Below are positions 5,480 to 25,238 of a stretch of DNA of 32,000 nt, piece after piece. The notes beneath the pieces are model-generated. The model was not told the origin of the DNA. It ran no database searches and worked only from the letters and a program-made list of their open reading frames with translations. The translations under genes and the position numbers were made by a program. Every line of letters starts with the position of its first letter. The stretch's first letter is position 1. This stretch comes from Puniceicoccales bacterium. Its GTDB lineage: Bacteria; Verrucomicrobiota; Verrucomicrobiia; Opitutales; JAIRLM01. The stretch lies in the NCBI GenBank assembly GCA_031268315.1, contig JAIRXK010000028.1, positions 1-32,000 of the forward strand. The letters are read 5' to 3'.

Positions 5480-5582
5480 AGATGTACACTAGGAAACGGT
5501 GTGGCGCTTACAAAATGATCCCATTGGCACACTTCCAAAATCCAACGTCTAGGTCGAAGCGCCCTGCGAGTCGAAGGGAAGC

Positions 5583-5840
5583 CTAGGCGAAAATGAGAGA
5601 GGAAAGTGCCGATTTAGCGCGGCGGGCCTTATTTGCGTGAATAATACCGCGTTTCACGGCCTTATCCAGAGCAGAAACGTAGGCAATGGCTGCCGATTTT
5701 TCATCGGAACTATTCTCGCCTGTTCCACGCACCCTCACTTTTTTTGCGAGGGTTTTTAGCTGCGACTTAGCCGCCTGATTTCGCATTGTCCGCTTTGCAA
5801 TTCTGCGGATATCTTTCTTTGAAGATTTAAGATTAGCCAT
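5583..5840 (-). CDS. rpsT: 30S ribosomal protein S20
   Basis: 85 aa, very basic. MANLKSSKKDIRRIAKRTMRNQAAKSQLKTLAKKV is the typical S20 N-terminus. Confidence 0.92.
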   Translation of the reverse strand: MANLKSSKKDIRRIAKRTMRNQAAKSQLKTLAKKVRVRGTGENSSDEKSAAIAYVSALDKAVKRGIIHANKARRAKSALSSLIFA

Positions 5841-5951
5841 GGTATTTCACTCCGTGATGGGGCAGTGGAAATTTCTTTTCAGAGCAAGTCAACTTTTTTT
5901 TTAAATTTTATTCGAAAATTTGCCATTGTCGTGAAAATTCCAAAAATTTTT

Positions 5952-5981
5952 CTAAAAAATGGCCGCCGAAAAAACGGCGGC
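5952..5981 (-). terminator. rho-independent terminator after module 1
   Basis: Minus strand reads GCCGCCG-TTTTTT-CGGCGGC followed by CATTTTTTAG. The stem is at 5962-5968 / 5975-5981, downstream of the stop at 6145. Confidence 0.6.
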
Positions 5982-6144
5982 AAAAAAAATCAGCGGCCGC
6001 GCGGGTCAAGTGGCGCCACTGCTTGATAAAAAGTTTTCGATACTGAGAGCATTTGCAGTGCCACCTTTCCATCGCCTTTTTTTTTGATTCAACGGTTGGC
6101 ACGCCAAATTTTAAAAAAGCGAAGAATGCTTGCTGCAAGTATTT

Positions 6145-7158
6145 TTATTTTCCGAATAAGCGTTGAAAAAAATTTCTTTCCGATGCTTGCCTTTTCATTT
6201 CCGCCGCTTCTGCCTCTGCTTGGCGTATTATTTCTTCCGCACGATGTTTTGATTGCCTTTCCATTTCCGCTAAATTGAGTTGTGCCTGTCGGATTCTTTC
6301 AGCGTTCTCCACGCGGCCACGCTCAAGACGAGCTTTGGCTTGCTGACATTCCTCTCTGACGGCAATCAATTCTGGCCGATCGGACGGTGCATACTTTGGC
6401 CAAGTTTTTTCCCATGGCCAACGATTTTTTGCATGGGTTGATTTCCATGGGCTCGGCTCAAATAGAACCAATGACGTCTCTTCCATAAATTTTTCCCATT
6501 CCTCTGCGATGTCGATGTCCTCACTTATGTGAATAATATCATCAAAGCGTGTATTCTCTGGCAATGTTCCCGATCGTATGCCTTCTGCCTCCGTTTTAAT
6601 TTTATCAATTTTGGCAGCAACCTCACCTTCAATCTTAGCAATTTTTGCGGCGGTTTTAGCTTTGCATCTAGCTAGACTCTCCTCCGATCTTTCCCTCGCA
6701 TCGGCACTTTCTTTGTCAATTTGATCGTAGCGGCGAATAAACTCCACTTCATCCTGAGTCATCGGTATGACGCTTCTGCGGGTCGCAGGATCCGCTATTC
6801 TCCTCATTCTTTCCTCCTGTTGTTTGTGAACTTCAGGTAGCGCATAGTGTACGTTACGCCGGACAATATCTTCGGCTTCACTAAAGGAGTGACCTTGCTT
6901 TTCCGCATCCATAAGCCACTTTCTAATTGGCATTTGCAATTCCGGATACCACAGCAACCACCCAATAATACGACACCTTCTCATATCATCGTCGGCCGAG
7001 TTATAGTTGTCATAGGGAGTTCGATTTTGCGAAGATTGCGGATTTTTTCCCGCTGCTGCATTTTCCGCCTGTGGTTCGCGATATTGTACTGGACAATTGA
7101 TGCCCGTTTTTCCTGAAGCATTCATCTGTAATTTCCTTAGTATTTTTTTATTCATCAT
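6145..7158 (-). CDS. hypothetical coiled-coil protein B1 (paralog of 10605..12350); MinD-like amphipathic C-terminal tail
   Basis: 337 aa from the ATGATG at 7158/7155, which overlaps the stop of the upstream gene. The track start at 7263 would overlap that gene by 115 nt. No signal peptide. A conserved YPE...P-x-TR-x-x-(I/V)-P block is shared with B2. The Glu/Arg/Ala-rich coiled coil ends in ...ERNFFQRLFGK. Confidence 0.8.
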   Translation of the reverse strand: MMNKKILRKLQMNASGKTGINCPVQYREPQAENAAAGKNPQSSQNRTPYDNYNSADDDMRRCRIIGWLLWYPELQMPIRKWLMDAEKQGHSFSEAEDIVRRNVHYALPEVHKQQEERMRRIADPATRRSVIPMTQDEVEFIRRYDQIDKESADARERSEESLARCKAKTAAKIAKIEGEVAAKIDKIKTEAEGIRSGTLPENTRFDDIIHISEDIDIAEEWEKFMEETSLVLFEPSPWKSTHAKNRWPWEKTWPKYAPSDRPELIAVREECQQAKARLERGRVENAERIRQAQLNLAEMERQSKHRAEEIIRQAEAEAAEMKRQASERNFFQRLFGK

Positions 7159-7708
7159 CACTGCTAATTCCGACAAAGACCCTTCCGAACCAACTTTGTG
7201 TGTCATATTTCGCTTGTCTCCGCAGCGTTGCAGCCCTAACGTTTGCCAGCATAGCTTCTGCATCTGCTTTAGCCTGTGCTATTGAGTTTCTTGCGTTAAT
7301 TTCAGCATTTGTCAATGCGATTTTTGCGGCGAATTCCGCATTAATCAGCCTTTCGTTTGCCCTTCCACAAGCAAGACTTACCTCATCAAATTTTTCCTCC
7401 TGCTTCATAACCGCTGCTATCGCATCCAACAAAGCGTTCCATATGGTGCATCGGCTTTCCTCATCCTTGGCAGCCAACCATACAGATGCGTACATTCCTA
7501 TGGTGGCTGCAGAGGCTGAGCGGCAATTTCCTACGGATTCGAGGAGAGATACCAGTGGTTGAATTTCTTTCAATTGATTAGACACCGCCATGTATTGCTC
7601 CGAAAAAACATTAGGAACATTCGGCCCCATTGCTTTAATCGCTTCGAATAGATCGGATTTCTCCTTTTGCAGATCAGCTGCATAAGTTTTAAGTGAAAAT
7701 ATAGACAT
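7148..7708 (-). CDS. hypothetical coiled-coil protein A1 (motif-level paralog of 12378..13835)
   Basis: 186 aa from the ATG at 7708, preceded by AAGGAG 6 nt upstream. The N-terminal ~110 aa are followed by an Ala-rich coiled coil. The C-terminus reads ...SWFGRVFVGISSDDE. No signal peptide. Confidence 0.8.
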   Translation of the reverse strand: MSIFSLKTYAADLQKEKSDLFEAIKAMGPNVPNVFSEQYMAVSNQLKEIQPLVSLLESVGNCRSASAATIGMYASVWLAAKDEESRCTIWNALLDAIAAVMKQEEKFDEVSLACGRANERLINAEFAAKIALTNAEINARNSIAQAKADAEAMLANVRAATLRRQAKYDTQSWFGRVFVGISSDDE

Positions 7709-8124
7709 ATAAGCTCCTTTACCTTGCGATTTGATTAATTTCTGCACTGCGCAGGAATTACCATCGTCGCTGTCTCACTCAACAGAAATTCTTTTAAGAA
7801 AGCACGCACTTTCTGTTTTTTTACAAAAAAAGAACAAATTCAAAAATTCTTCATTGGCTATTGCTAGAAAGCTGTTTTTTACTGATTAATTACACAAAAT
7901 AATTTGGTGATTTTTTGTTTGCGATGGATCCGGTCGCGTCGGCTACTTGCCCCAGAAAATTAGCGGATTTTTGCCATTGCCAAACGCCAAGTAATTGGGT
8001 TAGATTGAGCGAACTGTGAAATATTTCATAGCATTTACTGGACAGCAAGGCTCAAGTGACAACGGCAATTTTGACGATGCATTGAATGAGTCGTCTACCA
8101 TGGAGTTAGAGATGTGAAAATTTA

Positions 8125-9621: not shown

Positions 9622-10338
9622 TTAAGCGGTTACTATTTCCTCGCAATTTACATAATATGCCATCCCTTGCACTTGCACGGGCATTGCCATGGATTGGGGA
9701 TAGCCACCTGCCGTTGCTATGTTTACAGCAGGCGGTTCATAGTGAAATTGCTCTTCGATGGCGGCAAAGTACCTCATTTTCTGATTTCCTCTGCAGCGGG
9801 CGCGTATTTGGCCAACCGCCAGCGCAGCACCTACAGCAATGAGGCCGTATCCAAGAATGGAAAGTATACCTTCATCCGTATCGTAGGCAACCCCCGCAAC
9901 GGCAATTCCCGTTATAATCAGTACCATATTGCAGCACATTGATATGCACGGGCGATATACCCATTTAGCGCCGCAACAATAACTATGGGATGCTTCCACT
10001 TCCTCAAAAAAAAGCCGCTTTTGTTCAACGGCAAGCAAGGGATCATTTTCAACTGCGGTTCGCAGTGCCGTGAGGGACATTTCAGTATTAGCATCTACAA
10101 TGTCCCCATACCTTTTTTTTATCTCCGCAAAGTGAGGCGCTCCATTTTCCCTAAAGATGTCCGGATAGCGCTGACTTGCGTAATTAGCTGGAACGGTGGG
10201 CGTTACCCCGCCCGCGAACCCAACTGGGCCATAGTTGGATGGAACCATTGGCACCATACCCCCAGCAAATCCAACCACACCAAAATTGGAGACGGCCGCG
10301 CCGTCGTCCGAACGAATTACATTTATTCTATCTGCCAT
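9622..10338 (-). CDS. hypothetical membrane protein with central two-helix hydrophobic hairpin
   Basis: 238 aa from the ATG at 10338, with GGAGG 7 nt upstream. It has a tandem 17-aa repeat VGFAGGMVPMVPSNYGP / VGFAGGVTPTVPANYAS. The hydrophobic segment is NMVLIITGIAVAGVAY-DTDEG-ILSILGYGLIAVGAALAVG. There is no N-terminal signal peptide. Confidence 0.8.
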   Translation of the reverse strand: MADRINVIRSDDGAAVSNFGVVGFAGGMVPMVPSNYGPVGFAGGVTPTVPANYASQRYPDIFRENGAPHFAEIKKRYGDIVDANTEMSLTALRTAVENDPLLAVEQKRLFFEEVEASHSYCCGAKWVYRPCISMCCNMVLIITGIAVAGVAYDTDEGILSILGYGLIAVGAALAVGQIRARCRGNQKMRYFAAIEEQFHYEPPAVNIATAGGYPQSMAMPVQVQGMAYYVNCEEIVTA

Positions 10339-10394
10339 TGACTGACCTCCGGCGCGATTTCGCAAAATTTTTTTTCAAAATAAAGCTTATTTTA

Positions 10395-10523: not shown

Positions 10524-10604
10524 ACGACTTATCGCCAATTGGTGGCATTCATATATCTTACTATTTTGCTTTAAAACGATGAAACAGCCACATAAAAAAG
10601 ACCT

Positions 10605-12350
10605 TTATGTAACCGAACAACCCCCTTGATCTTTTTTTTTATGCATTTCATTTGCTTGTCCAAACTCTTTGTCCATTTCTAATTGATCATTTTCCTTCTG
10701 CATCTTTTTTGCAGAATCGGCTTTTGCTTGAATTTGAGCAAGGATATCGATTTTATATTTTTCGAGAACTTCATCGCTATTGCTTCGAACTTCAATAATT
10801 CCACTTTCTTCTATTTCAAACTCTTTGCCCATTTTTAATTGATCATTTTCCTTCTGCATCTTTTTTGCAGAATCGGCTTTTGCTTGAATTTGAGCAAGGA
10901 TATCGGTTTTATATTTTTCGAGAACTTCATCGCTATTGCTTCGAACTTCAATAATTTCACTTTCTTCTATTTCAGCTCTATCCGCGTTCATTTGATCACT
11001 GGCAATTTCATTTGCTAATGGAGCAATCTCACTATTTGCTTCACTGGCAATTATAGTTACGGGCATGTTGCAGCCCATATTATGCCTTCTCCGGCGCCCA
11101 CGGCTTTTCTCTATGAATTTACTCGTCTTCTCATCGGTGGTTAAATCCTGACCCATATCCGCTTGATTCACAATTTCGACCTTAAAGCTCTCCAGGACTA
11201 AGCGCGGTGCGGGTGAACATGGGGATTCACTTTCTTCAAGTTTGCATTCATGGACATTTTTCTTACTTTCAAGTTTAGCACGAAGCTCAACCATTTTACG
11301 TGCATGGGCAGCTTTTTGGGTTTCTTCTACTTTGCTCAAGGCACCTAACTCGGCTGCAAACTCGGCTGCAAACTCGGCCATGCGATTTGCTAAGGCTACC
11401 TCACGGGCTTTGGCCGTTTCCTCAATCGCAAGTCCTCTAGTCTTAATCTCAGCCATACGATTAGCATGAGCGTCTTCATTGGCTTTTCTCTTGATTGCAA
11501 GCTCAGCCAGTTTATTTTCATTGGCTTTGCGCATGCTCGCAATCTTAGCCACTTCGTTTTCATGGGCGACCTCATTGGCTTTGCGCATTTCTTCGACCTT
11601 AAGTTTGCTACTAGCCTCAATCTCAGCCAGTTTATTTTCATTGGCTTTGCGCATTTCTTCGACCTTAAGTTTTCTACTAGCCTCAATCTCAGCCCGTTTA
11701 TTTTCATCGGCTTTGCTCATGATTGCAAGCTCAGCCATACGATTAGCATAAGCGTCTTCATCGGCTTTGCGCATGATTGCAAACTCAGCCTCACGGGCTT
11801 TGGCCGTTTCCTCAATCGCAAGTCTTCTAGTCCTAATCTCAGCCATACAACTAGCATAAGCGTCTTCATTGGCTTTGCGCATGCTTGCAAGCTCAGCCAG
11901 TTCATCTTCATTGGCTTTGCGCGCTTCTTCGGCCTTAAGTTTGCTACTAGCCTCAAACTCAGCGCGTTGTGCATCTGTTTTATTCAGTGTATCTATCAAC
12001 CTGCGTTCATGTTCATTTCGAGGAACAATGTGTGCGCGAGTTTTGGGATTGTGAATCATTTCTTTTCGCTGGTCACGTGCAGCACGTATCTCATCGACAC
12101 AGCTGTCAATTTCCTTTCGAATGATAGCCGATGCCTCGACGATGTGATCATTGTCCCAGCCAAGCTCATCAAGCCGCTGTATTATAAAATCGTAGCACTC
12201 TGGATAGGCTGATCCGTAGCTCACAAGACAATCTCTCGCAGATTTAATTTGTCCCGGCGTATGCGGAATGTGTCTGCCAGCCGAAGAAAAATCTCCTCCG
12301 TGAGGTTCTCTTTTCTGAGTGCTGTTAACTCTAACAATTGGAAAGTTCAT
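10605..12350 (-). CDS. hypothetical repeat-expanded coiled-coil protein B2 (paralog of 6145..7158); ends KKKDQGGCSVT
   Basis: 581 aa, with AGGAG 8 nt upstream of the ATG. The N-terminal Q-x-REP and YPE...P-x-TR-x-x-V-P block aligns without gaps to B1. The centre consists of degenerate RKANE(D/N)xxAE heptad-like repeats. Two nearly identical 52-aa C-terminal repeats follow. No signal peptide. Confidence 0.85.
   Translation of the reverse strand: MNFPIVRVNSTQKREPHGGDFSSAGRHIPHTPGQIKSARDCLVSYGSAYPECYDFIIQRLDELGWDNDHIVEASAIIRKEIDSCVDEIRAARDQRKEMIHNPKTRAHIVPRNEHERRLIDTLNKTDAQRAEFEASSKLKAEEARKANEDELAELASMRKANEDAYASCMAEIRTRRLAIEETAKAREAEFAIMRKADEDAYANRMAELAIMSKADENKRAEIEASRKLKVEEMRKANENKLAEIEASSKLKVEEMRKANEVAHENEVAKIASMRKANENKLAELAIKRKANEDAHANRMAEIKTRGLAIEETAKAREVALANRMAEFAAEFAAELGALSKVEETQKAAHARKMVELRAKLESKKNVHECKLEESESPCSPAPRLVLESFKVEIVNQADMGQDLTTDEKTSKFIEKSRGRRRRHNMGCNMPVTIIASEANSEIAPLANEIASDQMNADRAEIEESEIIEVRSNSDEVLEKYKTDILAQIQAKADSAKKMQKENDQLKMGKEFEIEESGIIEVRSNSDEVLEKYKIDILAQIQAKADSAKKMQKENDQLEMDKEFGQANEMHKKKDQGGCSVT
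10662..10973 (-). repeat. 156-bp tandem duplication (2 copies) inside B2
   Basis: 10662-10817 and 10818-10973 differ at 4 of 156 positions by hand alignment. Each copy encodes (E/A)(F/E)(E/I)IEES(G/E)IIEVRSNSDEVLEKYK(I/T)DILAQIQAKADSAKKMQKENDQL.... Confidence 0.9.
11470..11960 (-). repeat. degenerate in-frame repeats (RKANE motif) inside B2, including a near-perfect 66-bp doublet
   Basis: CATTGGCTTTGCGCAT recurs many times. 11575-11640 and 11641-11706 are 66-bp units differing at 2 positions, each encoding ASSKLKVEEMRKANENKLAEIE. The outer boundaries are approximate. Confidence 0.75.
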
Positions 12351-12377
12351 ACCTATTCTCCTAGTTGAAGCATTCTA

Positions 12378-13835
12378 TTATATGGCATTGCAGAAATTCT
12401 CATCGTCGAGATCTCTATTCTGGAGCCTTGCCCTTCTGGCCTGCTGCTTTCGCAATTCCACATCGGCCTTCACTTCTTCCCGCCGAAGGGCAATTATTTC
12501 CGGATCGCTTTCAAGGGCCGCTCTTGCCGCTTCTCGAGTTGCCCTTGCGTCACTTTCATTTGCATTGGCCTTTGCTTGGCGCAACCTTTCCTTTGCTTCG
12601 CAAAGTTCCACCTCCGTTTTGTTCTTTTCTGCGTTAGCTAAATCCACTTCTGCTTGAAGCAGATTTGTTTTCACATTTATTTTGCTCAATTCTGCCCTAG
12701 CTTTACCTAGCTCCAATTCTGCCCTTGCCTTGGACTGCGCTGCGTCTGCCCTAGTCTTTTCCTCTTCCGCCCTAGCGGCATCTTTGGCTTGCTCTAGTGC
12801 AACTTCGGCTTGAGCGGCATCCATTTCCGCCTTTTTCTTGGCCTCCTGAAGTTCAAGCTCTGCCTTTTCTACCTCTATCTTAGCTTGTTGAAGTTCCACC
12901 TGAGTTTTCTCCGCTTCCACCTTAGCAGCATCTTTGGCTTGCTCTAGTGCAACTTCGGCTTGAGCGGCATCCATTTCCGCCTTTCTTTTTGCCTCTTGAA
13001 GTTCCACCTGAGTTTTCTCCGCTTCCGCTTTAGCAGCATCTTTGGCTTGCTCTAGTGCAACTTCGGCTTGAGCGGCATCTGTTTCCGCCTTTTTCTTGGC
13101 CACCTGAAGTTCTAAGTCACATTGTTCCCTAGCTCGTTGAAGTTCCATTTTAGTTTTCTCCGCTTCCGCCTTAGCAGCATCTTTGACTTGCTCTAGTGCA
13201 ACTTCGGCTTGAGCGGCATCTGTTTCCGCCTTTTTCTTGGCCGCCTGAAGTTCCACCTGAGTTTTCTCCGCTTCCGCCTTAGCAGCATCTTTGGCTTGCT
13301 TTAGTGCAACTTCGGCTTGAGCGGCATCCTTTTCCGCCTTCTTCTTGGCCTCCTGAAGTTCGAGGTCAAATCGTTCCTTGGTTTGCTGTAGTTCCATCTG
13401 GGCTTTCTCCACTTTCGCCTTAGCGGCATCTTCGACTTGCTTGGCCTTCTCCTCGGCTTGTTTTCTCACCGATGCTGACTCTGCCGCCATTTCGTCGGTG
13501 AATTCCTTGATGGCATCGGGAAGTCTTGCAAGAGCATTGGCACGGGTGCCGGCCTGCTCTTTATCATCCTTGTCAATGGACGCGTAGAGATAACACTGCA
13601 TGGCCAGATTTTTGAGTGCCGGCGAACCGGATTCATGCGCAAATGCAACCAGCCACATTTGACTATTTAATTGAAGTGTTTTGGTGTAAACATTTTTCCA
13701 AAACTTCAATAACTCCACATTGTTGCCGCAATTTCGCATTTCTGCTTTTGCATCATTGAGCGCCGTATTCACGGTGGTCTGTATAGCCATCAGTGTCTGC
13801 GAGTCAACATTTTTTATTTCACTATTTCCACTCAT
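12378..13835 (-). CDS. hypothetical repeat-expanded coiled-coil protein A2 (motif-level paralog of 7148..7708); ends DDENFCNAI
   Basis: 485 aa, with GGAAAGGA upstream of the ATG. A ~110-aa N-terminal domain is followed by Ala/Glu/Lys repeats of the unit DAAQAEVALEQAKDAAKAEAEKTQVELQEAKKKAE. No signal peptide. The gene lies 27 nt upstream of B2. Confidence 0.85.
   Translation of the reverse strand: MSGNSEIKNVDSQTLMAIQTTVNTALNDAKAEMRNCGNNVELLKFWKNVYTKTLQLNSQMWLVAFAHESGSPALKNLAMQCYLYASIDKDDKEQAGTRANALARLPDAIKEFTDEMAAESASVRKQAEEKAKQVEDAAKAKVEKAQMELQQTKERFDLELQEAKKKAEKDAAQAEVALKQAKDAAKAEAEKTQVELQAAKKKAETDAAQAEVALEQVKDAAKAEAEKTKMELQRAREQCDLELQVAKKKAETDAAQAEVALEQAKDAAKAEAEKTQVELQEAKRKAEMDAAQAEVALEQAKDAAKVEAEKTQVELQQAKIEVEKAELELQEAKKKAEMDAAQAEVALEQAKDAARAEEEKTRADAAQSKARAELELGKARAELSKINVKTNLLQAEVDLANAEKNKTEVELCEAKERLRQAKANANESDARATREAARAALESDPEIIALRREEVKADVELRKQQARRARLQNRDLDDENFCNAI
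12720..13440 (-). repeat. in-frame tandem array of 108-bp units with 33-42-bp insertion variants inside A2
   Basis: The motif GGCTTGCTCTAGTGCAACTTCGGCTTGAGCGGCATC (with minor variants) recurs at 12786, 12936, 13044, 13185 and 13293. The spacings are 150, 108, 141 and 108 bp. The outer boundaries are approximate. Confidence 0.85.
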
Positions 13836-13983: not shown

Positions 13984-14061
13984 ACGATCGCATAATTCAA
14001 ACTCCAAGACTAATTGCTAGCATTGCAATGGCTATTGCCGCTTTGGCAGAGGCCTAAACGC
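13984..14061 (-). repeat. 77-bp repeat element, copy 2 (inverted partner of 391..467)
   Basis: See copy 1. This copy sits between the A2 promoter region and the IS5-like transposase remnant. Confidence 0.85.
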
Positions 14062-14099
14062 AGCAACAAAAAAAGTATTTTTCCACTAATTTTTTCAGT

Positions 14100-14632
14100 T
14101 TCTGATTAAAATTTTCGATGCAATGGCGAGTTTTTAATTTTCGTTTTCCTTCTTTCGTGTTCTGTATTTTCATGTTTTTTCCATTTCTTCACTACAAACT
14201 TTAAATTCTTCTGCATTAGGTGATTAGTTTTATGTAGCCGCTGTCTCCAATGGCACTTTCGGCGCAGTTTTCAAGCAACACCTTTAAGAAGCAAGCATCA
14301 CGTGCGGATCCATTTGAAAGGCAAAAATTTATGGCAATCGTATCTTCGGCATTAGTAGCGATATGGACTTTGAATCCGAAAATAGCTCGGCCCTTTCCAT
14401 GGCTTCTCGCATTGATTTAAAGCGTTTAATACGAGCATGTAAACAAAGTTTAATCGGAGTAGAATCGCCAATGGAATCTCCATGTAACGCCTTGAGGCAA
14501 AGAGCGTTTTTTAATTCGATTAAAATTTTTGGAAACCGTTTCATAATCGGAGCATAATGAGGTAACGTTGGGAAAAATCTTCTAAATGTGGATGTATTGG
14601 ACCATGATAAAATGTTTTAAAATCCTTTACAC
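14100..14632 (-). pseudogene. IS4/IS5-family DDE transposase remnant (frameshifted, truncated)
   Basis: Minus-strand fragments lie in different frames. One reads ...SWSNTSTFRRFF... followed by ...ALHGDSIGDSTPIKLC... (IDST-type motif, ORF 14329..14544). In another frame is GFKVHIATNAEDTIAINFCLSNGSARDACFLKVLLENCAESAIGDSGYI, matching the G-x-K-x-H ... aDkGY pattern of DDE_Tnp_1. Stops interrupt the fragments and the N-terminal part is missing. Confidence 0.6.
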
Positions 14633-14677
14633 CGGCTAGTTATGCCCAGAAATAAAGTGCCAAATGACACAATTTTG

Positions 14678-14767
14678 AGTGGTAAAATATCCAGTGAAAA
14701 AATTTCCGACGGCAAAGTTTCTAACGGCCAAATTTCTAATGGAAAAATTTCAGGTGACGAAATTTTG
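14678..14767. repeat. 15-bp imperfect tandem repeat, 6 units
   Basis: The units are AGTGGTAAAATATCC / AGTGAAAAAATTTCC / GACGGCAAAGTTTCT / AACGGCCAAATTTCT / AATGGAAAAATTTCA / GGTGACGAAATTTTG. The repeat lies inside ORF 14642..14950(+) (SGKIS SEKIS DGKVS NGQIS NGKIS) and antisense ORF 14617..14904(-). Whether either ORF is coding is unresolved. Confidence 0.8.
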
Positions 14768-15524
14768 AATGGCGGCGACAGTGATCGCTCCGGCGAAATT
14801 GTTCCAGCGAAAAGAGTTCGCGGGCTTTCGATCGGCATAAAAACGGCAATAAAGAAATACAAGTTCACACTTTTCCCAGGGAACAAGAGAATGGCGAGTA
14901 ACAACGCAAATCATCGCAACATTCTCGCGCAGATGAAATTCGCCGAATAATTGGCATCGACGGCAACTCGCCGCTTTTACTCAATGCACTGGAGCGATTA
15001 TTGGTGCTTACAAACCAGTCGGGACCGATTTTAATTACTGCTGTAAAGGAACTGGAAAGAAAAAATTTGCTGAGTTTTTTCACCATCTGGTCAGTGGCGA
15101 ATGCCAAAACCTCCATATTCTTCGCTGTGAAAAATTTGCTTTTCCGTTGCCCTGGATCTCTGCCGCGAATTTCTTTGTGGAAATTATGGAAAGGTGTTTG
15201 GCGACTTCCATGGCTATGACTTTCAGTGTGATCGACCTGTCGCGGTAAAGCAAAATTCCTCCAGCGGAGAGATTTGCCTAGAGATCCCCATCCACAACTC
15301 TTGGAGAATGATATTCCGCTATCGAGCCTGCGGCCACGGCGCTTTCCATGATCACGCATTGGCATTCAGCGGCGTCCATTGCTTCTAAATTACTTCCCCG
15401 GCGAGTATTAATAAAATTGCATCGGAAGCAGTAATAGCCTTTCCAAAAGACCAACCATCTCCCCAAGGTCCACTTAGCAAAGATTGCAAATGTGGAAAAA
15501 TATTTTTGAAATCAAAATTTCATT

Positions 15525-19346: not shown

Positions 19347-20710
19347 CGAGAGTTTTGCAATTCGCATTAATTGAAGATTTGAAGTACGCCTTCCTAAATT
19401 TTTACCGGTTTGCATATGTATCAATTTATTTGAAATTTAATATATATATGCATCGCGTTACCGATTAGCAGCACTGCCGCAGCGAAAAAATGCCGCTGAT
19501 TGGAATAAGTTTGCGCATTTCAACGGGATATCTCCAATAGGCAGACAGCGAATCCCAATTTTCTCGCCAAATTTCGCCTATGTTTTCATAGTGTGGGTTC
19601 CACTTCAAGCAAAACATTTCCAATCTTTCAAGGCCCGCATCCGCATGAGGAGCGGCGAAGACATCTCGTATGTTCCCACAAATTGCATCGACATGTTTTG
19701 CTTCTATGATATCGATGAAACTTCGAATTTGGCTAAAAATACATTTCTGTCGATCGGCAAATGGAAAGCATATGTGAATGGCTTCGTTCAATTTCGGCAA
19801 ATCACTGCTGCAAAAAATCATCAAATCGCTGAGACCGCGAGTTTTGAGACTCTTCATGGCCTCGACCCAGTATTGCTCGTCGTGATCTTCTGGGACCGCA
19901 TACACTCCGAATACTTCCTTATAGCCATTTCTGTCAATGCCGATGCATGCATAGATGTTATTTTCTGAACACGTTTCATCCGATTGAAACTTAAAGGTCC
20001 TGCTATCCATGTAAATAATTGCACAGGTTGGTTGTATTGATTTAGATATTACGCCACTTGATTCGGTGATCATTCGATTGGCAAAGCGGCTAAGGTCCTC
20101 CGCGGAAATTTCGTTTTTGTAAATTTCGCGCAGGTATTCGACGGTATCGCTCAGCGTCAATCCTTGGGCACAAAGAGCGATCAATGCATCTTCAATGTCA
20201 TAAATATTATTCTTATATTTGCCAACAATTTTTGCTTTATAAAGACCTTGTCTATCCCGAGGCACTTTCAACGTAATGGGGCCATTGCAACTCTTAACCA
20301 CCTTCTGAGAAACCCCATTGCGATAATTCTCTCTTCTACCCAATTTTCGCGCAAATTTTTCAAAGCCTAAAAAACTTTCTAATTCTTCAGAATAAAGAAT
20401 CTCAATTGCGCATTTTTTAATTTTGCGAAATGCCATATTGGCAAGGTCGAAATCGCCGTATATTTTCGGTGACTTTCTGCGCCTAGGCTGCCTCTTTATC
20501 CGCGATGACCATTTTTTTTTCTCATTCTCCATAGTAATAGATTCCTTCTATTAAAAAATTTTTTTGGAAAATTCACTCAGTGAACCATTTCTCCCAGTTC
20601 CCTAAGGACACATTTCCGACTTTTTATCAGCTAATCCACAGATAAATCGGCGCACATGCCGTATAAATGTATTCTGCAATGAGTACTTATCCCAATTGCC
20701 AAAGCTTTCG
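19347..20710 (-). mobile_element. IS256-family insertion sequence, probably decayed (boundaries tentative)
   Basis: It encloses the transposase ORF. The candidate imperfect terminal inverted repeats are CGAGAGTTTTGCAATTCGCATTAA (19347-19370) and the reverse complement of TTATCCCAATTGCCAAAGCTTTCG (20687-20710). About 19 of 26 positions match with one gap. No flanking direct repeat was found. Confidence 0.35.
19465..20532 (-). CDS. IS256/Mutator-family transposase, C-terminally short
   Basis: 355 aa. The matches to the IS256 pattern are NYRNGVSQKVVKSCNGPITLKVPRDRQGLY, IIYMDSRTFKF, ACIGIDRNGYKEVFGVY and RGLSDLMIFCSSDLPKLNEAIHICFPFADRQKC. The ORF stops where the T-T-N-x-x-E catalytic segment is expected. 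Confidence 0.7.
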   Translation of the reverse strand: MENEKKKWSSRIKRQPRRRKSPKIYGDFDLANMAFRKIKKCAIEILYSEELESFLGFEKFARKLGRRENYRNGVSQKVVKSCNGPITLKVPRDRQGLYKAKIVGKYKNNIYDIEDALIALCAQGLTLSDTVEYLREIYKNEISAEDLSRFANRMITESSGVISKSIQPTCAIIYMDSRTFKFQSDETCSENNIYACIGIDRNGYKEVFGVYAVPEDHDEQYWVEAMKSLKTRGLSDLMIFCSSDLPKLNEAIHICFPFADRQKCIFSQIRSFIDIIEAKHVDAICGNIRDVFAAPHADAGLERLEMFCLKWNPHYENIGEIWRENWDSLSAYWRYPVEMRKLIPISGIFSLRQCC

Positions 20711-23873: not shown

Positions 23874-25238
23874 ATGGCTACAAAAAAACAAAGTAAAAAA
23901 TGTTGCATTTCGGAATCTCAGATAGATGCCTGCTACACCTACTGGCGAATTCGCTTGCTCTACACGCTCATTATCGGCTATGCTGCCTTCTATTTAGTAA
24001 GGCAAAATATGCAAATTGCCGCTCCACTTATGCTGAAAGAATTTGGATATTCAAAGACCCAGGTAGGATGGATTTTCAGCGCGTTTCCAATCATTTACGG
24101 CGTAGGAAAGTTTGTTAGTGGAATCTTTTGCGACCGTGTTAACGTGCGCTACTACATGGCTGGAGGCCTTCTACTGGCGGCCATGACGAGCGTCTTTATC
24201 GGATTTTCAGACAATATTTCCGGTTTTTTTTTCCACTTTTTGCACGTCAGTGCTAGCCCAATTTTCTTCATTGCCGTTTTCTACTCTTTGAATGGGCTAT
24301 TTCAATCGGCCGGCTGGCCTCCCATCGCGCGGCTCATGACCAATTGGTTTTCACCGAAGCAGCTGGGAACCTACTGGGGCATCGTCAATGCATCGCACCA
24401 GGTTGGCAGTGTAACCATTCTCATCGGCGGAGCATGGCTCGGCCAACACTACGGCTGGAAAACCATTTTCTTTATTCCGGCAGTCGTCTGCGTCTTTTTT
24501 TCATTTTTTCTCTTCAATCGCCTCTGCGACACCCCAGAATCAGAAGGATTGCCGCCGCTGCATGTCAAGGAGGGCATTGCCCTAGGAAAGGGAGAAAAGG
24601 CGTGCTCCAATGAGGACGGCCATGCGTCATTTTCTGAAATTTTTTTCCAGCACATTCTTCCCAACCGGGCTCTGTGGCTTGTGTGCTGGGCAAATTTTTT
24701 CCTCTACGTTGTCCGCATGGGATTTTTCAATTGGGCACCGACGTTTCTCCAAGAGGCGCGTGGCTCGTCCGCCATCGGATCCAGCTTTCAAACGGCATTC
24801 TTTGAAATTTTTGGACTTTTTTCAGGAATTGTTGCCGGGTACATTTCCGATCGCTGGGCCGGCGGCCGCCGCAATGCGGTTTGCTCCGTATTTATGGCCA
24901 TCCTAATCGTTTGCCTGTTTCTTTTTTGGCAAAGTCCAACCGATCATCCTGCCTGTGATACCATTCTTCTATCCATCATTGGATTTTTCGTCTATGGGCC
25001 ACAGACTTTGGCGGGAGTAGCCGGCGCTGAGTTCGGTTCCACACGCGCCGCGGCAACGGCCAATGGACTAACGGGTCTCTTCGGCTCCCTAGGCGCCATT
25101 TTTTCTGGATTTGGCGTCGGCCTTATCACGGACCACTTCGGCTGGAATTACGCAATTCTGTTCTATATTTTCTGCGCAACGGCAAGTCTTTTCTTCTTTA
25201 TGTTCAATTGGTCCCAAACGTCACAGCGCACCTCCTAG
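23874..25238 (+). CDS. MFS organophosphate:phosphate antiporter (GlpT/UhpT/UhpC family)
   Basis: 454 aa. YWRIRLLYTLIIGYAAFYLVRQNMQIAAP...GWIFSAFPIIYGVGKFVSGIFCDRVN and ...ILPNRALWLVCWANFFLYVVRMGFFNWAPTFL align closely to E. coli GlpT as I remember it. Confidence 0.85.
   Translation: MATKKQSKKCCISESQIDACYTYWRIRLLYTLIIGYAAFYLVRQNMQIAAPLMLKEFGYSKTQVGWIFSAFPIIYGVGKFVSGIFCDRVNVRYYMAGGLLLAAMTSVFIGFSDNISGFFFHFLHVSASPIFFIAVFYSLNGLFQSAGWPPIARLMTNWFSPKQLGTYWGIVNASHQVGSVTILIGGAWLGQHYGWKTIFFIPAVVCVFFSFFLFNRLCDTPESEGLPPLHVKEGIALGKGEKACSNEDGHASFSEIFFQHILPNRALWLVCWANFFLYVVRMGFFNWAPTFLQEARGSSAIGSSFQTAFFEIFGLFSGIVAGYISDRWAGGRRNAVCSVFMAILIVCLFLFWQSPTDHPACDTILLSIIGFFVYGPQTLAGVAGAEFGSTRAAATANGLTGLFGSLGAIFSGFGVGLITDHFGWNYAILFYIFCATASLFFFMFNWSQTSQRTS

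Follow-up and report, generated by a model that had tools for sequence, protein, structure and literature searches.

Prenylation of bacterial proteins by a eukaryotic host has so far been reported from a handful of pathogens, e.g. Legionella and Salmonella. The effectors concerned, AnkB (CVLC), PelC and PelE of Legionella pneumophila and GtgE and SifA of Salmonella, end in a CaaX box, in which a cysteine stands four residues from the C-terminus (position -4). AnkB is farnesylated by the host, including the amoeba Dictyostelium, and an AnkB allele exists in which a frameshift exchanged the CaaX for another anchoring motif. In K-Ras4B, a polybasic stretch and a farnesylated CaaX together form a bipartite membrane signal. 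Here, we analyse a 32,000-nucleotide stretch of DNA from a Puniceicoccales bacterium (contig JAIRXK010000028.1; "the window" below is this whole stretch), in which two adjacent genes, A2 and B2, both encode proteins with a cysteine at position -4. In the protein comparisons described below, the CaaX box is one recurrent, positionally exact form of a variable C-terminal device in the family of B2.

The A2-B2 pair and the C-termini of the B family

Both genes lie on the reverse strand, A2 (12378..13835, 485 aa, tail DLDDENFCNAI) upstream of B2 (10605..12350, 581 aa, tail HKKKDQGGCSVT, full translation ending EMHKKKDQGGCSVT). The A2 stop codon and the B2 ATG are 27 nt apart and a GGAG ribosome-binding site precedes B2, so that the two genes look like an operon. 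B2 ends in the box CSVT (10608..10619, reverse strand) and A2 in CNAI (12381..12392, reverse strand). An earlier note on this DNA had singled out the cysteine at -4 in both proteins and the scarcity of cysteine elsewhere, and the translations bear this out, with cysteine at 8 of 581 residues in B2 and 5 of 485 in A2. In a six-frame translation of the window, 22-26 open reading frames (ORFs) reach 150-200 codons or more, and of these only A2 and B2 have a CxxX ending. From cysteine frequency alone, the chance of both is about 1.4e-4, or a few times 1e-3 once corrected for some 25 adjacent gene pairs.

To delimit the B family, a profile was built from the N-terminal regions of B2 and of its paralogue in the window, B1, and 1.84 billion representatives were searched exhaustively with hmmsearch. 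The search returned 35 proteins at E <= 1e-3 (9 at E <= 1e-10); P0162 was set aside as apparently unrelated, leaving 34 members for the tail statistics, which align over a common domain some 90 residues long that bears the motif YPE...R..I.(D/N)P.TR..V.P. Cysteine stands at -4 in 11 of these 34 proteins (CSVT, CDIA, CSPA, CQVA, CGGS, CLLF, CIVV, CLVA, CFLI, CGVG and CLLV) and at none of the positions -1 to -3 and -5 to -8 in any of them. At the family cysteine frequency of 1.0%, the binomial probability of this enrichment is P = 3e-14. Nine of the 11 boxes have V, I or L at a2, against a background of 17.5% (P = 6e-6), and no box, CNAI included, has D, E, K or R at a2 or K, P or R at X. These residues are the main negative determinants in a complete CXXX screen of yeast farnesyltransferase (FTase), in which CTVA, CNLI and CKQT were farnesylated at 95-100%. 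Under the rules of that screen, neither CSVT nor CNAI (a2 = Ala, X = Ile) holds an FTase-restrictive residue. The optimum of geranylgeranyltransferase type I (GGTase-I), Cxa[L/F/I/M/V], is matched by CLLF, CIVV, CFLI and CLLV and loosely fitted by CNAI.

P0137, the nearest homologue of B2 (36% identity), ends in CDIA. The CaaX members fall into about nine separate nearest-neighbour groups and 7 of the 11 are closest to a non-CaaX protein; this scattering points to repeated gain or loss of the box, which speaks against one inherited accident. A KK(K/S) patch is conserved a few residues upstream in most members, and where at most 8 residues follow the lysine run, 6 of 9 proteins have the cysteine at -4, an outcome with a chance of about 1e-7 at roughly 3% per tail. 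As a control, a CxxX ending was found in only one of 66 other called genes of the related loci, and that one has Lys at X. The members without a box carry mostly basic tails with aromatic or hydrophobic residues (SFLGRFFRK, KKKFSLFGSLSFGKK, RWWPFAKK, KKKQSLRRWLDESGKK); the tail of P0151 is hydrophobic and transmembrane (TM)-like, and a few others are short, with no obvious anchor. For most tails, the hydrophobic moment did not clearly exceed that of shuffled versions, so that the non-CaaX tails were not confirmed as amphipathic; the test is a crude one, which a MinD tail taken as control failed as well.

Both proteins of the pair are built on a similar plan. In A2, an A-family domain of some 120 aa at the N-terminus is followed by an Ala/Glu/Lys/Gln-rich tandem-repeat region, which looks like a coiled coil, and by the tail; B2 has a helical (modelled) N-terminal domain (11949..12257, reverse strand, residues ~32-134, carrying the family motif), a repeat-expanded, coiled-coil-like region, a duplicated 52-aa unit and the tail. 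Recent tandem repeats make up the bulk of both: a repeat scan found repeats of 108 and 249 bp in the middle region of A2 (12753..13441, reverse strand) and of 42, 66 and 156 bp in B2, the 156-bp (52-aa) unit standing as two tandem, 97% identical copies in the C-terminal part (10661..10974, reverse strand). B2 also contains the Arg run KSRGRRRRH (11090-11116, reverse strand, residues ~413-421), pointed out in the earlier note and present in the translation. It resembles a nuclear localization signal, is specific to B2 and is not kept in the family; it would be of interest if the bacterium were related to the intranuclear 'Candidatus Nucleococcus'.

The N-terminal domain of the B family appears to be novel. 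An AlphaFold2 model of the B2 domain from the family alignment is all helical (predicted local distance difference test score, pLDDT, 87), and neither a PDB sequence-profile search nor Foldseek gave a significant match to profile or model. A Pfam scan of all 34 members returned scattered noise, with DUF2934 at E = 0.013 in one of them, in agreement with the NCBI name of P0147, and a word-indexed homology search with full-length B2 retrieved only B2. All source-named members are hypothetical proteins of Puniceicoccales metagenome-assembled genomes (MAGs), several of which hold 2-3 paralogues; P0131, P0155 and P0160, for instance, are three B paralogues of a single Puniceicoccales MAG (locus tag LBI69). 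Like the window's own proteins, these three have no entry in the contig look-up, and the window probably comes from this very MAG. Its B genes would then number five or more, three of them ending in CaaX and two in tails of the amphipathic type. The B family thus appears to be a previously unrecognised family confined to a Puniceicoccales lineage of termite-gut MAGs.

The A9 tract and the tails of the alternative frame

The three lysines upstream of CSVT are encoded by a run of nine adenines (A9; T9 on the plus strand, 10632-10640; the gene is on the reverse strand), a candidate slippage site. Nine A or T form a classical efficient slippage site of bacterial RNA polymerase, and Thermus thermophilus dnaX makes productive use of a run of nine (Atkins et al. 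2016). That KKK derives from this run and that a length slip there would replace the CaaX tail had been noted before, and both statements hold: one added A or a -1 frameshift at A9 opens the alternative tail RSRGLFGYIKVFFMWLFHRFKAK / KKKRSRGLFGYIKVFFMWLFHRFKAK (10561..10631, reverse strand). What the comparison adds is that the tract is conserved and that the other frame encodes a second, family-typical tail.

Within the window the run is not unusual, being one of eight A/T runs of exactly 9, and we rejected it as remarkable on that ground. B2's tract is special in that the same tract is kept in homologues from other assemblies. Of the 34 members, six CaaX-type B genes were compared at the DNA level, and in five of the six an exact A9 encoding KK(K/S) stands shortly upstream of the box. 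The carriers, B2, L024/P0138, L025/P0144, L026/P0157 and L027/P0152, come from five assemblies of 46-56% G+C and, apart from close pairs, their proteins are less than 50% identical. Given the usage of AAA/AAG, GAA/GAG and Ser codons, the joint probability of the shared A9 is about 1e-5. The sixth gene, L028/P0150 (L028:2192-3124, CIVV), has no A9; instead, a G_GGA_AAA heptamer stands in phase six codons ahead of its stop, and a shift into the -1 frame would add 31 residues ending in KAIFNWFRRLFG (NWFRRLFG). Among the other members, P0137 (CDIA), P0142 (CQVA) and P0160 (CLLV) likewise have a box without a preceding A9/K-run, as judged from the proteins, whereas P0150 was read from DNA.

The tails that would be read with ten adenines resemble real tails of other members. 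The A10-frame tail of L026, KKKQSLRRWLDGCGEG, matches the real tail of P0158, KKKQSLRRWLDESGKK, at 12 of 16 positions; that of L024, FFRWIGWNLGLCER / GFFLAIGSGFAAMGRAVRSFFRWIGWNLGLCER, is identical to the real tail of P0151, FFCFLGWRLGLCSR / GFFAKTWGAIVAAAVAVATFFCFLGWRLGLCSR, at 15 of 37, the shared positions including FF..GW.LGLC.R. The A10-frame tail of L025, KKKRGLFAFLSSRKSSGA, has KKKR(SR)GLF in common with the alternative tail of B2, a similarity that is short in the case of B2. This resemblance to real family tails indicates that both frames carry family information, and from it we infer that, through the A9 tract, a single gene may produce the two tails side by side or alternate between them.

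Partner genes, neighbouring features and source lineage

The match of A2 to the A-family profile is weak yet colinear (hhalign E = 8e-4, 124 columns), and A2 stands in the same position relative to B as A homologues elsewhere. A gene homologous to A1, the second A gene of the window, lies directly upstream of B in L025 (A tail GFFRRLFTSEEA / KGFFRRLFTSEEA), L027 (HGWFWKFVHPW) and L028 (GFFSRLFSSEK / KGFFSRLFSSEK). In L026 only a 74-aa A-like fragment precedes B, and in L024 a 56-aa ORF stands upstream and an A-like gene downstream. The usual A-family tail, as read in eight proteins, is of the GFFRRLF type. A profile search with the A family retrieved A1 only, and in the LpxD-anchored loci of relatives tblastn found no syntenic copies of A or B.

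A shorter paralogous pair, A1-B1, spans 6145-7747, also on the reverse strand. A1 (7148..7708, 186 aa as called, P0129) ends in QSWFGRVFVGISSDDE / SWFGRVFVGISSDDE and B1 (6145..7125, 326 aa as called, P0130) in SERNFFQRLFGK, of the NFFQRLFGK type; neither has a cysteine at -4. B1 is 23% identical to B2 in the N-terminal region (E = 1e-5), and the relationship of A1 to A2 is recognisable by alignment only. Scans of A1, A2, B1, B2 and the protein encoded downstream (C) against Pfam, NCBIfam, PHROGs and PADLOC gave no matches, and the idea that the A-B module is a phage or defence system was rejected. The intact 485-aa product of A2 is missing from a collection of 15 billion proteins, and A2 has apparently been left uncalled as a protein by both NCBI and IMG. 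Between B1 and lpxD lies rpsT (ribosomal protein S20, 5480-6145, reverse strand), which is absent from the list of ORFs of 120 aa; two A9 runs downstream of B1 were considered as traces of a decayed B gene and rejected, both flanking rpsT.

Directly downstream of B2, a 247-aa ORF (9622-10365, reverse strand) has no family matches. It shows a GFAGG..P.VP.NY motif duplicated near the N-terminus and a Cys cluster, SYCCGAKWVYRPCISMCCN, adjoining two short hydrophobic segments with DTDEG between them. The hydrophobic pair is reminiscent of the bilobed domain in Inc proteins of chlamydiae, and the product may be a further host-directed membrane protein. Directly upstream of A2, at about 13998-14180 on the reverse strand, is a frameshifted remnant (MKIQNTKEGKRKLKTRHCIENFNQKLKKLV / ASAKAAIAIAMLAISLGV) with a counterpart in a small ORF (L028:568-744) a few hundred bp upstream of the L028 A gene; it looks like the C-terminal piece of an insertion sequence (IS) transposase accompanying the A-B module. 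Near the module of L027 stand IS630-type and resolvase genes. The window further contains a mutator-type transposase ORF (19465-20532, reverse strand) and, at 14000-15500, about 1.5 kb of low GC with no convincing long ORFs, both consistent with a genome containing IS elements and pseudogenes.

Each protein of the window occurs a single time, on one 51.8-kb contig present at both NCBI and IMG, and at 90% identity relatives are lacking. LpxD shares 57-61% identity with numerous proteins that bear the label 'MAG: Puniceicoccales bacterium', and contigs of relatives and B members include JAITCU01, JAIRMB01 and samples of the JGI series 33000426xx. The two contigs traced, JAITCU and JAIRMB, fall inside the range JAIRJQ-JAITXW, a deposit of termite-gut MAGs whose authors take two Opitutales families for putative endosymbionts of flagellates in the gut (Mies et al. 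mBio 2024, PMC11257099). An organophosphate:phosphate antiporter, named there as a characteristic trait of such endosymbionts that has often been gained by horizontal transfer, is present in the window as a major facilitator superfamily protein (OPA-type, PgtP/GlpT/UhpC-like; 23874-25238, plus strand). Based on the Puniceicoccales relatives, the termite-gut accessions and the antiporter, the source bacterium is plausibly host-associated, its intracellular location and its host being putative. A free-living source, which by the earlier note would have counted against prenylation, was not indicated by any of these data, the relatives and named members being Puniceicoccales MAGs. A search of genome contigs for the CCA enzyme encoded nearby brought up no close relative (best hits at <=43% identity, from unrelated phyla), and a metagenome contig scan gave no match, in a collection that seemingly lacks these samples.

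Proposed host prenylation, rival readings and known systems

We propose that A2 and B2 make up a copy of a module of two genes, A followed by B on the same strand and nearly abutting, in which each protein would combine a small novel N-terminal domain, a repeat middle of variable length and a short C-terminal membrane anchor. The B anchors would be interchangeable: a KK(K/S) patch with a CaaX box (KKKDQGGCSVT), a basic tail with aromatic or hydrophobic residues (NFFQRLFGK) or, rarely, a TM-like segment. A and B would be exported into a host cell and reach the eukaryotic cytosol or nucleoplasm, a step that is required since the CaaX form makes sense only there. Host FTase or GGTase-I would then lipidate the CaaX cysteine, and lipid and lysines would jointly hold the protein at a host membrane; the CNAI of A2 would act likewise in place of the GFFRRLF-type tail. 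On balance, we find it rather probable from the sequence evidence that A and B are exported, that B2 and probably A2 are prenylated by the host and that the lysine patch helps to hold them at the membrane. RNA-polymerase slippage, -1 ribosomal frameshifting or a heritable slipped-strand change at A9 would lead to the other tail type, so that one gene would yield both isoforms or switch between them. A more specific version, in which the A9 or the -1 heptamer is a programmed recoding signal that sets the ratio of two differently anchored isoforms (KKK plus CaaX versus basic/aromatic or TM-like), is possible and we advance it tentatively.

Several observations weigh against host prenylation and lend themselves to other explanations. 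By eye, no signal peptide is apparent in the A and B proteins, and the window and the loci read contain no secretion-system gene and no known effector domain; moreover, tails of the NFFQRLFGK type resemble MinD-type targeting sequences, which act inside the bacterium (the E. coli MinD tail is KGFLKRLFGG). The proteins might then stay in the bacterium as inner-membrane or cytoskeleton-like coiled-coil proteins with MinD-like tails, the cysteine serving for a disulfide, for metal binding, for bacterial lipidation or for a CPBP/Rce1-like protease. The missing export signals, the NFFQRLFGK of B1 and the GFFRRLF of the A tails and the N-terminal domains, which carry no eukaryote-like or effector annotation, all suit this explanation. 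We nevertheless judge it unlikely: a cysteine placed strictly at -4, an aliphatic a2, a permitted X and the polybasic patch follow the rules of the eukaryotic enzymes; the plausible host association of the lineage, the multiple copies, the IS neighbours and the repeat expansion are typical of host-interaction genes; and, to our knowledge, no bacterial CaaX protein prenyltransferase has been described. Conservation of the cysteine, proposed earlier as a check, comes out in favour of the box in B2, 11 of the 34 B members having it, P0137 (CDIA) among them; two thirds of the family lack it and bear other tails instead. Two of the 11 boxes, CGGS of P0143 and CGVG of P0157, are poor and look like small changes to non-CaaX tails. 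These poor boxes, standing beside non-CaaX relatives, would suit the idea that CaaX ends are by-products of a hypermutable homopolymer, the functional tail being the basic/aromatic one that A10 gives; the alleles with A9 would then have arisen by recent frameshifts, or be miscalled homopolymers, and the result would be a truncated protein with a functionless CxxX. The same idea accounts for the match of the L026 and L024 alternative frames to the real tails of P0158 and P0151, and the hydrophobic character of alternative-frame tails is partly expected from T-rich 3' regions. It also draws on run lengths: in 127 kb (the window plus loci L019, L020, L022 and L024-L028) there are 19 A/T runs of exactly 9, 32 of 8 and none of 10 or more, whereas geometric decay predicts about 7 runs of >=10, a ceiling for which a technical limit, or else selection acting near the slippage threshold, would account. 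Still, we hold such a by-product to be quite improbable. Random out-of-frame tails would place a cysteine at -4 in about 3% of cases, far from the 6 of 9 seen in short tails after a K-run; the a2 residue is aliphatic in 9 of 11 boxes; the box also occurs without A9 (P0150, P0142, P0137, P0160); A9 persists at less than 50% protein identity, where synonymous change should break such runs; and another A9 run (L020, L021) has the same length in the NCBI as in the Logan assembly.

Coincidence, finally, would mean that two adjacent genes acquired a cysteine at -4 by accident. Scanning many possible motifs does turn up some accidents, the prior for A2 is about 1%, and no other A member has a box. 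For B2, however, accident is excluded by the family statistics (P of about 3e-14) and by the box kept in P0137, and A2 and B2 are both the sole long ORFs of the window with a CxxX ending and operon partners, so that a double accident seems extremely improbable. The case of A2 taken alone is different: CNAI is the single CaaX among eight A proteins, seven of which have no such cysteine, and the evidence for its box is weaker for that reason and rests mainly on context. Here an accident, if still perhaps unlikely, has to be reckoned with. The paired CaaX reading of the earlier note is thus partly supported: family statistics and the nearest homologue favour it for B2, and it is less secure for A2, whose CNAI in place of an aromatic tail would fit an anchor swap, as a single case.

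If A2 and B2 are prenylated by a host, a trick described from a few pathogens would seemingly be used by a whole two-gene family of termite-gut Verrucomicrobiota, a lineage with no described effectors. CaaX boxes would be a sequence-level sign of protein delivery into the eukaryotic cytoplasm and a handle on the host interaction of protist endosymbionts, possibly intranuclear ones, and the conserved A9 coupling, if used, would give transcriptional slippage or frameshifting a new biological role. With the host-prenylated effectors, A2 and B2 share the cysteine at -4, residues acceptable to FTase or GGTase-I, a bacterium associated with eukaryotes (here plausibly) and a tail that serves as an anchor (here presumably). 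They differ in their source, Verrucomicrobiota with a termite-gut and possibly flagellate host, in belonging to an unrelated family with novel N-terminal domains and in forming A-B pairs; and their prenylation is predicted from sequence, whereas host farnesylation has been reported for effectors of the AnkB type. In the B family, moreover, the choice between CaaX and an alternative recurs family-wide and is tied to a slippery run, unlike the single mutation of AnkB. The lysines upstream of the box (KKKDQGGCSVT, KKKDHVCSPA, EKKSVVCLLF, EKKSQTCFLI) recall K-Ras4B, with two to three lysines here, in bacterial proteins, against six or more in K-Ras4B.

The likeness to slippage systems (Thermus dnaX, Shigella spa13 and mxiE, Citrobacter tssM, IS transposases) lies in a slippery run within the coding region that leads to an alternative C-terminus; in the B genes this use is predicted from sequence, and the tract could equally well serve heritable phase variation. 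We know of no case in which slippage switches between a prenylation box and another type of tail, nor of any description of a dual-anchor switch that places bacterial proteins on host membranes. The short basic and aromatic/hydrophobic C-termini of B1, of the usual A proteins and of many B proteins are like the targeting tails of MinD and FtsA, from which the A and B proteins differ in having no ATPase domain and no homology. Bacterial CaaX mimicry as such is known; what is new is a paired family of Verrucomicrobiota with interchangeable tails, CaaX boxes among them, coupled to a slippery run.

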